Source: Escherichia coli (GTDB lineage: Bacteria; Pseudomonadota; Gammaproteobacteria; Enterobacterales; Enterobacteriaceae). From it: a DNA stretch of 64,000 nt. Shown here piece by piece: positions 23,901 through 26,740 of this stretch; position 1 is the stretch's first letter, and each line of letters starts with the position of its first letter. Location of the stretch: NCBI RefSeq assembly GCF_024298765.1, contig NZ_CP101210.1. One strand, written 5' to 3'. Made by a program: the position numbers.

Positions 23901-26740
23901 GAATAAAGTCGGGGATCTGTTCCTGAAGCGCCTTATACCAGGCGGCAATTTGCGCTTTAAGCGCGGCGGTTAATGCCATGAGAAAACCTGAAATACTGTA
24001 TAAACAGCCAATATTGTGGCATTTTTCGGTTTTCAGGGGTAATGGTTTTTCTGTTTCTGGAAAGCGGCTCGCAATAACCAGCAGGATGATGCGTAAAGCG
24101 CTTCGCGCTAAATTCGAACAACATGCAGAACTGCGTACACTCTTGCTGGCAACCGCGTCCGCAAAACTGGTTGAGCATACGCAAAATGATGCTTACTGGG
24201 GAGATAGCGGTAATGGTCAGGGCAAGAATCGCCTGGGGTACCTTTTAATGGCGTTGCGCGGACAATTGGCTGCGGAGAAGTAACGCATCGGGTGGCTTGT
24301 GGGCGTTAAAACAGAGAAATCTTTTTGCCGCGCTCGCAAATGGCTGACAAGTGCTTGTTGTGAAATGCCGGATGCGGCGCGAGCGCCTTATCCGGCCTAC
24401 AAAAACATGCACATTCAATATATTGCAGAGTTCACGTAGGCCTGATAAGCGTAGCGCATCAGGCAGTTTTGTGTTTGTCATCAGTCTCATGCCGGGCATA
24501 GCCCGGCATAAAAGATTACTGCGCAGCGGCAGGTTTACGCGGACGGCGGCGACGTTGTTGTTCGCCTGCCGGTTTGGCATCGCCGAGACGACGAGACGGT
24601 TTTTCTGCGGGCTTCGCGTTACCAGACTTCGCACCACTTTCCGCACGGCGTGATTGCTGTTGACCGCGACCACCGCCCTGTCCACGACCGCCGCCACGTT
24701 GCTGGCGACCGTTCTGGATCGGTTCGGCTTTGATTGACGGGTCCGGCTCATACCCCGGAATCGCAATGCGCGGGATCTCTTTTTTCAGCAGTTTTTCGAT
24801 ATCACGCAGCAGTTTGTGTTCATCAACACACACCAGCGACAATGCTTCGCCAGTTGCCGCCGCACGGCCAGTACGCCCGATACGGTGAACATAATCTTCC
24901 GGTACGTTTGGTAACTCATAGTTGACGACGTGCGGCAACTCTTCGATATCCAGACCGCGCGCAGCGATGTCAGTTGCCACCAGTACACGAATATCGCCCG
25001 ATTTAAAATCGGCCAGCGCACGAGTACGCGCACCTTGCGATTTATTACCGTGGATCGCCGCACTACGGATGCCGTCTTTATTAAGCTGTTCAGCCAGATG
25101 GTTAGCGCCATGTTTGGTACGGGTAAACACCAGCACCTGCTGCCAGTTCCCTTTCCCAATCATATGCGACAGCAATTCGCGTTTGCGTTTCTTATCGACA
25201 AAGTGAACGTGCTGGGTCACCTGATCAGACGCAGTATTGCGGCGTGCCACTTCGATTTCCAGCGGGTTGTGCAACAGTTTTTCCGCCAGGGCTTTAATAT
25301 CGTCAGAGAAGGTCGCGGAGAACAACAGGTTCTGGCGCTTCGCTGGCAGTTTTGTTAACACGCGACGGATATCGTGGATAAAGCCCATGTCGAGCATGCG
25401 GTCAGCTTCATCAAGGACGAGGATTTCAACCTGATCCAGCTTCACTGCATTTTGATGTTCCAGGTCCAGCAGACGTCCCGGCGTTGCCACCAGCACATCA
25501 ACGCCGCCGCGCAACTTCATCATTTGTGGGTTAATGCTGACACCGCCAAACACCACCAGCGAACGAATGTTCAGATATTTGCTGTAATCACGGACGTTTT
25601 CGCCAATCTGCGCCGCCAGTTCACGGGTCGGGGTAAGAATGAGCGCACGTACCGGACGACGCCCTTTGGCGTGCGGCTGGCGAGTGATCAGATGTTGCAA
25701 CAGCGGCAGCGTAAAGCCCGCTGTTTTGCCGGTACCGGTCTGGGCACTGGCCATCAGGTCGCGGCCTTCCAGCACCGCAGGGATCGCCTGCTGCTGAATA
25801 GGGGTGGGTTCACGGTAACCCTGCTCGGCAACGGCGCGCAGGATATCAGGGCTTAAACCCAAAGAATCGAAAGACATAACTACTCCGAACCGCCCCGACC
25901 GTTACCGGTGTAGTTTTCAGGGAGATACTGAAAAGGAAAATGACAAAAACCACAATGTCATGAGGGAGCGGAGTGTAGCAGTTTTTGTGACGCAGCGCAT
26001 AAATTATCCCTGTGACTGGCGTTGCTAAAATTCCTGGTCATACTGGACAACTCCCCTATGGAGTCATAATCTTAATCAATCATTTGATTAAGAATGGACT
26101 GTGCGATGAATAATCCTGCCATGACAATCAAGGGTGAACAGGCGAAAAAACAGCTGATTGCTGCGGCACTGGCACAGTTTGGTGAATATGGAATGAACGC
26201 CACCACCCGCGAGATAGCCGCCCAGGCCGGGCAGAATATCGCAGCCATCACCTACTACTTCGGTTCGAAAGAAGATTTGTACCTCGCCTGCGCCCAGTGG
26301 ATTGCTGATTTTATTGGCGAGCAGTTCCGTCCACACGCCGAAGAGGCCGAACGTTTGTTCGCACAACCACAGCCGGATCGGGCAGCCATCCGTGAACTGA
26401 TCCTTCGCGCCTGCAGAAACATGATTAAGCTGCTCACCCAGGATGACACCGTCAACCTCAGCAAATTTATCTCCCGTGAGCAGCTCTCTCCCACGGCAGC
26501 CTACCACCTGGTGCACGAACAGGTGATTAGTCCGCTACACAGTCACCTTACACGCCTGATTGCCGCCTGGACCGGCTGCGACGCTAGCGATACCCGCATG
26601 ATCCTTCATACCCATGCGTTGATTGGTGAGATTCTGGCGTTTCGTCTTGGCAAAGAAACTATTCTGTTACGTACCGGCTGGACCGCGTTCGATGAAGAAA
26701 AGACCGAACTGATCAACCAGACGGTGACCTGTCATATTGA

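Follow-up and report, generated by a model that had tools for sequence, protein, structure and literature searches.

The ybiA locus of this Escherichia coli genome very probably holds only a dead and decaying relic of the gene, the product of one ancient deletion that has since been inherited, and comparison of sequences indicates that carriers of this allele would be natural ybiA nulls. In the 64,000-nucleotide stretch of DNA analysed here (the window), codons 96–160 of ybiA and the stop codon are retained on the plus strand at 24086–24283, as delimited by the NADAR profile, alignment to K-12 YbiA (2B3W) and a PGAP pseudogene call. The match to PF08719 (NADAR) covers profile positions 88–162 of 163 (E 2.9e-17; 63.8 bits against a cut-off of 35.1) and is limited to the last 65 residues of a 101-codon open reading frame. 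The 65-aa product aligns end-to-end with residues 96–160 of 2B3W (E 2.6e-31), with 86% protein identity (9 of 65 residues differ) and 89% DNA identity, and it occupies the same chromosomal place as K-12 ybiA (b0798), divergent from dinG and convergent with rhlE. Thus only a part of the NADAR domain, rather than its full length, is encoded. Whereas K-12 ybiA is complete (b0798, 160 aa), the window's ybiA has lost its start codon, the 15 bp of leader before it and codons 1–95, so the enzyme cannot be made. A preliminary description had reported that only about 66 C-terminal codons are present and, taking K-12 YbiA as a 160-aa protein, that a YbiA of that size cannot be encoded here; this length is right for MG1655 b0798, K-12 YbiA fails to align full-length to the region (residues 96–160 only), and the retained codons 96–160 with the stop agree with that estimate. 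Its placement of the remnant's start at 23980 has to be corrected, as that position is the start of the intergenic DNA and the homologous remnant begins at 24084–24086.

Intact ybiA encodes the NADAR-family N-glycosidase, or guanine-ADP-ribose hydrolase. K-12 YbiA reportedly acts on riboflavin intermediates and, in vitro, on guanine-ADP-ribose, and ybiA is reportedly involved in swarming motility (PMC11125620, PMC11543638). The N-terminal half of the NADAR fold, and with it the conserved PTSEHYFQAQK segment, was lost in the deletion, and the LVEHT...DAYWGD part of the active site stays in the remaining 65 codons. In studied NADARs the catalytic Glu and Lys are N-terminal (E88 and K95 in the E. 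coli C7 NADAR, E43 and K50 in the P. nicotianae enzyme; PMC11543638), and their equivalents in K-12 YbiA are presumed, from the motif rather than from an alignment, to lie in the deleted PTSEHYFQAQK segment. From these published catalytic residues and the truncation we infer, with high confidence, that enzymatic function has been lost. The remnant keeps KLVEHT (at about 24164–24181), which contains the last-strand Glu of LVEHT described as a YbiA-subfamily residue (PMC11125620); the next conserved Glu (in HTEND) has become Gln.

Both neighbours of the remnant are intact. dinG (716 aa; 21829–23979) and rhlE (453 aa; 24516–25877) lie on the minus strand, as seen in the list of open reading frames and in the annotation of a 100%-identical genome. 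The dinG LexA (SOS) box, 70 bp from the deletion junction, is intact at 23994–24013 on the minus strand: TATTGGCTGTTTATACAGTA, the sequence of this box, gave a single match with zero mismatches in a motif scan and was absent from 100 of 100 shuffled sequences, and alignment to MG1655 gave the same box as in K-12. The divergent dinG–ybiA intergenic DNA is retained at 23980–24083 (104 of K-12's 119 bp, with one mismatch relative to MG1655), and the missing 15 bp are those directly before the ybiA start codon. We assume that the ybiA promoter was probably kept within the retained 104 bp; a simple scan of 23850–24600 gave zero predictions of a sigma-70 promoter or an intrinsic terminator. The ybiA–rhlE spacer contains REP-type repeats (24330–24443), seen as sub-threshold naRNA4 and ES036 Rfam matches, which K-12 has too; an Rfam scan of 23800–24700 returned only these REP-related matches and no structured RNA through which the remnant could have a second role. 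The ybiA deletion has therefore left dinG, its LexA box and rhlE untouched, and SOS control of dinG is unaffected.

The longer reading frame that ends in the remnant appears fortuitous. It spans 23978–24283 on the plus strand and encodes 101 aa; its ATG and the opposite-strand dinG start codon overlap, and its 36 upstream codons are the dinG promoter region and LexA box read through. A stop-free stretch of 36 codons is expected in about 18% of random stretches, and the length of the frame is an accident, because the dinG promoter region happens to contain no in-frame stop. That the frame extends upstream through the LexA box to overlap the dinG start, and that the box itself is intact, had both been described before and are borne out here.

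From the dinG start to the rhlE stop the interval measures 537 bp in the window, compared with 834 bp in MG1655. Pairwise and multiple alignments to MG1655 reveal a single gap of 298 bp between collinear flanks, and lost in it are the last 15 bp of the leader, the ATG and codons 1–95 of ybiA; the earlier estimate of an interval shorter than in K-12 by a deletion of roughly 300 bp was accurate. A start codon and RBS homologous to those of an intact orthologue are absent, as the ATG and the 15 bp preceding it fall inside the deleted block. The junction (24082–24086, plus strand) consists of CA (24082–24083), a microhomology, followed by GG (24084–24085) and an extra A (24086) that is not in the intact alleles, as judged by comparison with the K-12 flanks, E. 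coli strain Z1323CEC0015 and Escherichia albertii. With a slash marking the breakpoint, the window reads AACCAGCA/GGATGATGCG, the K-12 left flank AACCACCA/ACATAATGCGG, the K-12 right flank AAGAACA/GGTGATGCG, the E. albertii junction AACCACCA/GGATGATGCG and the Z1323CEC0015 junction AACCACCA/GGTGATGCG.

The most economical history that we infer from these junctions would begin with one ancient illegitimate recombination, in which 299 bp would have been lost at the 2-bp CA microhomology, with both breakpoints lying within an imperfect direct repeat of 11/12 nt (CAACATAATGCG ... CAGGTGATGCG). A single A (24086) would have been inserted after the deletion, giving a net loss of 298 bp with the RBS included in the lost leader, and the C-to-G change at 24081 in the E. 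coli alleles would be a later step. A breakpoint at a 5-bp ATGCG repeat was also considered and was rejected, as it needs three to four extra substitutions; the CA breakpoint needs one insertion (and one substitution in the E. coli alleles), and the Z1323CEC0015 and E. albertii junctions agree with it.

The Z1323CEC0015 allele (locus L006; NZ_CP148423.1, 1030–1045) is itself unusual. It is a K-12-like remnant, with 2 mismatches in 295 bp, broken by a 299-bp deletion at CA/GG, and it carries neither the extra A nor the substitutions of the old allele, even those 3 and 11 bp from the junction. Found in 1 of 5,426 genomes, and with an IS1397 just downstream, it has the look of a second, independent event at this breakpoint, which would be unexpected for a 2-bp microhomology.

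The full-length form of ybiA is ancestral, because distant homologues (from Planctomycetota, Myxococcota and others) align over YbiA residues of about 11–160 and Escherichia marmotae has an intact 160-aa YbiA. Against this form, the divergence of the remnant suggests a decaying sequence. It differs from K-12 at 22 of 200 bases, compared with 3.0% in dinG and 4.3% in rhlE, and its dN from K-12 is 0.08, compared with 0.014 between two intact alleles and 0.002 for dinG. Several of the differences among remnant alleles fall at positions conserved across 13 distant homologues. Among the nine amino acid differences from K-12, four are ancestral states common to E. marmotae and a divergent E. coli, and the others (T113, Q128, A151, G154) are derived in the remnant lineage. 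Along the whole path to K-12, dN/dS is 0.32 and not 1, which is to be expected of a path that was partly under selection. No intact ybiA was seen elsewhere in the genomes; the N-terminal 298 bp had no match in 1,997 of them, and genomes having it carry one copy, or two at most. The remnant is therefore truncated, syntenic with K-12 ybiA and unaccompanied by an intact second copy, as a deletion-type unitary pseudogene would be.

We consider it very unlikely that the short frame (65 or 101 aa) is instead a functional NADAR mini-protein, perhaps made from the surviving ybiA promoter under LexA control. The frame is still open in the E. coli and E. albertii alleles, older annotations called it a protein and the inserted A made an ATG at the junction; a transcript, and possibly weak translation from the ATG at 24086 or 24089 (with GCAGG 0–3 nt upstream), can be envisaged from the sequence. 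However, such a protein would lack the N-terminal half of the domain, with its PTSEHYFQAQK segment, the original RBS is lost, PGAP calls a pseudogene, and an open frame of 65 codons is what chance would give over so short an evolutionary distance. Furthermore, near-invariant residues have been hit in separate lineages (GDGG to GDSG in the window, a change of near-invariant Gly to Ser, G136S; NRLG to NRPG in strain 536, Leu to Pro; LLLAT to LLRAT in APEC O18, Leu to Arg), and all differences between remnant alleles are non-synonymous, although the counts are tiny, at 1–3 per pair. These observations favour a decaying relic over a retained protein.

The deletion is not peculiar to this genome. 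Using an 80-bp probe centred on the junction, we found it in 1,120 of 5,426 complete E. coli genomes, the reference set used throughout (873 exact matches, 246 with 1–4 mismatches and 1 odd case). The carriers include ST131, ST95, strain 536 and the window's own ST117-like lineage, and the distribution is best explained by a deletion allele that is fixed or near-fixed in these lineages. That the deletion might be private to this genome, or an assembly artefact, can be given practically no weight: it is refuted by the 873 complete genomes whose 80-bp junction is identical and the 246 others in which it is nearly so, and a near-identical junction is also found in five E. albertii assemblies. The allele in this genome is inherited, old and widespread. 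The preliminary description had proposed checking whether a known lineage shares the deletion; several do, and RefSeq already annotates it as a pseudogene.

Existing annotation contains the same object under several names. Strain 104 is 100% identical to the window over 1,101 bp and has a PGAP pseudogene (DDV95_RS20535) at the equivalent of 24086–24283, and the label 'NADAR family protein; incomplete; missing N-terminus' is used in strain 104, EC958 (ST131) and APEC O18. The corresponding RefSeq pseudogenes (EC958_RS04085, APECO18_RS23195 and DDV95_RS20535) share the window's junction and its position relative to dinG and rhlE, with 0–2 differences per 200-bp remnant and none in kind. Older GenBank records for strain 536, SE15, APEC IMT5155 and APEC O2-211 list a 101-aa or 65-aa 'DUF1768 / swarming motility protein YbiA'. 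The APEC O2-211 allele has exactly the 101-aa sequence of the window, including Ser for Gly in GDGG, and the underlying change in the window's lineage, GGC to AGC at 24206, is shared with this strain, which belongs to ST117 (PMC6256689). Across 24 kb, an identity of 99% or more to the window is reached by only 73 genomes. S88 (O45:K1:H7; phylogroup B2) belongs to the group that follows, at about 98%, and K-12-like genomes come to 97%. The deletion is common to at least two deep E. coli lineages. We found no publication describing it in the literature on ybiA with pseudogene or phylogroup B2, and likewise nothing on it in the literature on ST117 and phylogroup G. The allele is already known through RefSeq pseudogene annotation, and the observation made in the window is correct yet ordinary.

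The same allele is also present in another species. Five E. albertii assemblies (L011–L015, 5001–5306; for example, GCA_013059785 and GCA_002937375) have the same deletion, the extra A and the accidental 101-aa frame. Their remnants differ from that of the window at 3–5 positions per 200 bp, and their junction keeps the ancestral C (AACCACCAGG, compared with AACCAGCAGG in the window). This likeness stops short of the surrounding genes, whose distances are those to be expected of two separate species: divergence between E. albertii and the window is 1.5–2.5% in the 200-bp remnant, compared with 7.3–8.0% in ybiB, 6.1–8.0% in rhlE and 10.7–11.0% in cecR, and dS is 0.022 in the remnant compared with 0.35 in ybiB. 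Where the five E. albertii all differ from the two intact E. coli alleles, the base in the window and in B2 alleles is E. albertii-like in 24 of 26 cases within 24084–24412, compared with 26 of 180 elsewhere (Fisher p ~2e-15, for boundaries picked post hoc). An allele kept separately in the two species would match the divergence of its flanks, which argues for an exchange that was recent and involved only a few hundred bp; a short homologous-recombination tract would have carried the deletion allele between E. coli and E. albertii.

Alternatively, the allele common to E. coli B2/G and E. albertii could be a trans-species polymorphism or the outcome of parallel deletion, which we regard as improbable. 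The K-12-like allele of Z1323CEC0015, broken at apparently the same breakpoint, implies that the site can break recurrently, and the alleles of the two species are reciprocally monophyletic in a small sample (8 alleles, with 5–8 differences in 337 bp, of which about 5 are fixed between the species). However, beyond the breakpoint, the remnants of both species share the extra A and some 20 substitutions that set them apart from the intact alleles, the low dS in the remnant departs from the flank-like divergence that separate upkeep since speciation predicts, and the E. albertii-like signal is restricted to about 330 bp. We favour, with some confidence, one old pseudogene lineage that passed between E. 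albertii and the ancestor of E. coli B2/G on a tract of less than 1 kb, as one of at least five independent routes of ybiA loss in Escherichia. On the direction of transfer, the 11% distance to the intact E. coli alleles would fit an origin in E. albertii as well as neutral decay along a deep branch of E. coli. The nesting of alleles favours neither direction, given the reciprocal monophyly of the 8 alleles and the ancestral state of four of the nine amino acid differences.

Exchange is also indicated next to the remnant. The 5' half of dinG (aligned to 22901–23979) is about 3% from E. coli in three of the five E. albertii assemblies (L011–L013), compared with 6.6–6.9% in L014–L015, and the low value in the first three indicates that E. 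coli-like DNA also entered E. albertii here. In the window itself, ybiB and rhlE are close to B2, but dinG is 3% from the B2 as well as the K-12 alleles.

The dinG–rhlE spacer exists in several further states among the 5,426 complete genomes. A search with the N-terminal 298 bp of K-12 ybiA found an intact-type N-terminus in 3,429 genomes, alongside the 1,120 with the deletion junction. In 325 genomes a RelE/ParE toxin gene and a hypothetical gene replace ybiA and the spacer (L003, 1330–2250), in 542 genomes (O157:H7 and relatives; IAI39) an espX2-type type III effector island replaces ybiA (L004, from 1326; L010, 5048–7947), and about 10 genomes have other states, such as the recombinase and phage-tail segment of SF-088 (L005, from 1290). 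Overall, about 63% of complete E. coli genomes have ybiA of intact type, and in about 37% the gene is absent or disrupted. The RelE/ParE module and the espX2-type island occupy the same place as the remnant but differ from it in that foreign DNA has been swapped for ybiA, leaving zero remnant. Their left ends, where K-12-like sequence stops, lie 5–9 bp before the left end of the deletion; SF-088 is an exception, with K-12-like sequence stopping about 45 bp further toward dinG. Several frameshifted ybiA products were also seen in the protein database. In Escherichia sp. MOD1-EC7003 (L037, about 3400–3790), the first 12 ybiA codons are followed by a REP-like element and then by the C-terminal 50 or so codons, which is another independent disruption of ybiA, in a different species. 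The five routes of loss would thus be the old deletion, the same-breakpoint deletion of Z1323CEC0015, the REP element of MOD1-EC7003, the RelE/ParE module and the espX2-type island.

In word- and pattern-based searches, close relatives of YbiA within Enterobacteriaceae were found only in Escherichia (E. coli, and E. marmotae at 91%), and no YbiA orthologue was found in Salmonella, Citrobacter or Klebsiella. The next best matches, at 77% or less, are unnamed metagenome proteins; named ones come from Planctomycetota, Myxococcota, Acinetobacter and Lysobacteraceae. This distribution suggests that ybiA may be a horizontally acquired, dispensable gene at a variable site in Escherichia.

ST131, ST95, strain 536 and ST117 are extraintestinal pathogenic lineages and natural ybiA nulls, and the phenotypes ascribed to ybiA in K-12 (swarming, clean-up of riboflavin intermediates and guanine de-ADP-ribosylation) consequently cannot depend on ybiA there. 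The database entries of 101 or 65 aa named YbiA, DUF1768 or swarming motility protein are annotation artefacts. According to a recent paper, a K-12-like ybiA is a consistent member of the dinG neighbourhood, which LexA controls, in 'many' E. coli (PMC11125620), a statement that is qualified by the proportions of intact-type and other genomes given above. The pseudogene allele found in both species illustrates on a small scale how short the recombination tracts between E. albertii and E. coli can be, and it opens no new question. If loss of ybiA has indeed taken multiple routes, it would be neutral or favoured in some lineages, and the dinG–rhlE spacer would be a hotspot of recombination and insertion. 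Together, the multi-state locus and the allele shared with E. albertii are of modest interest for population genomics and leave the overall picture unchanged.
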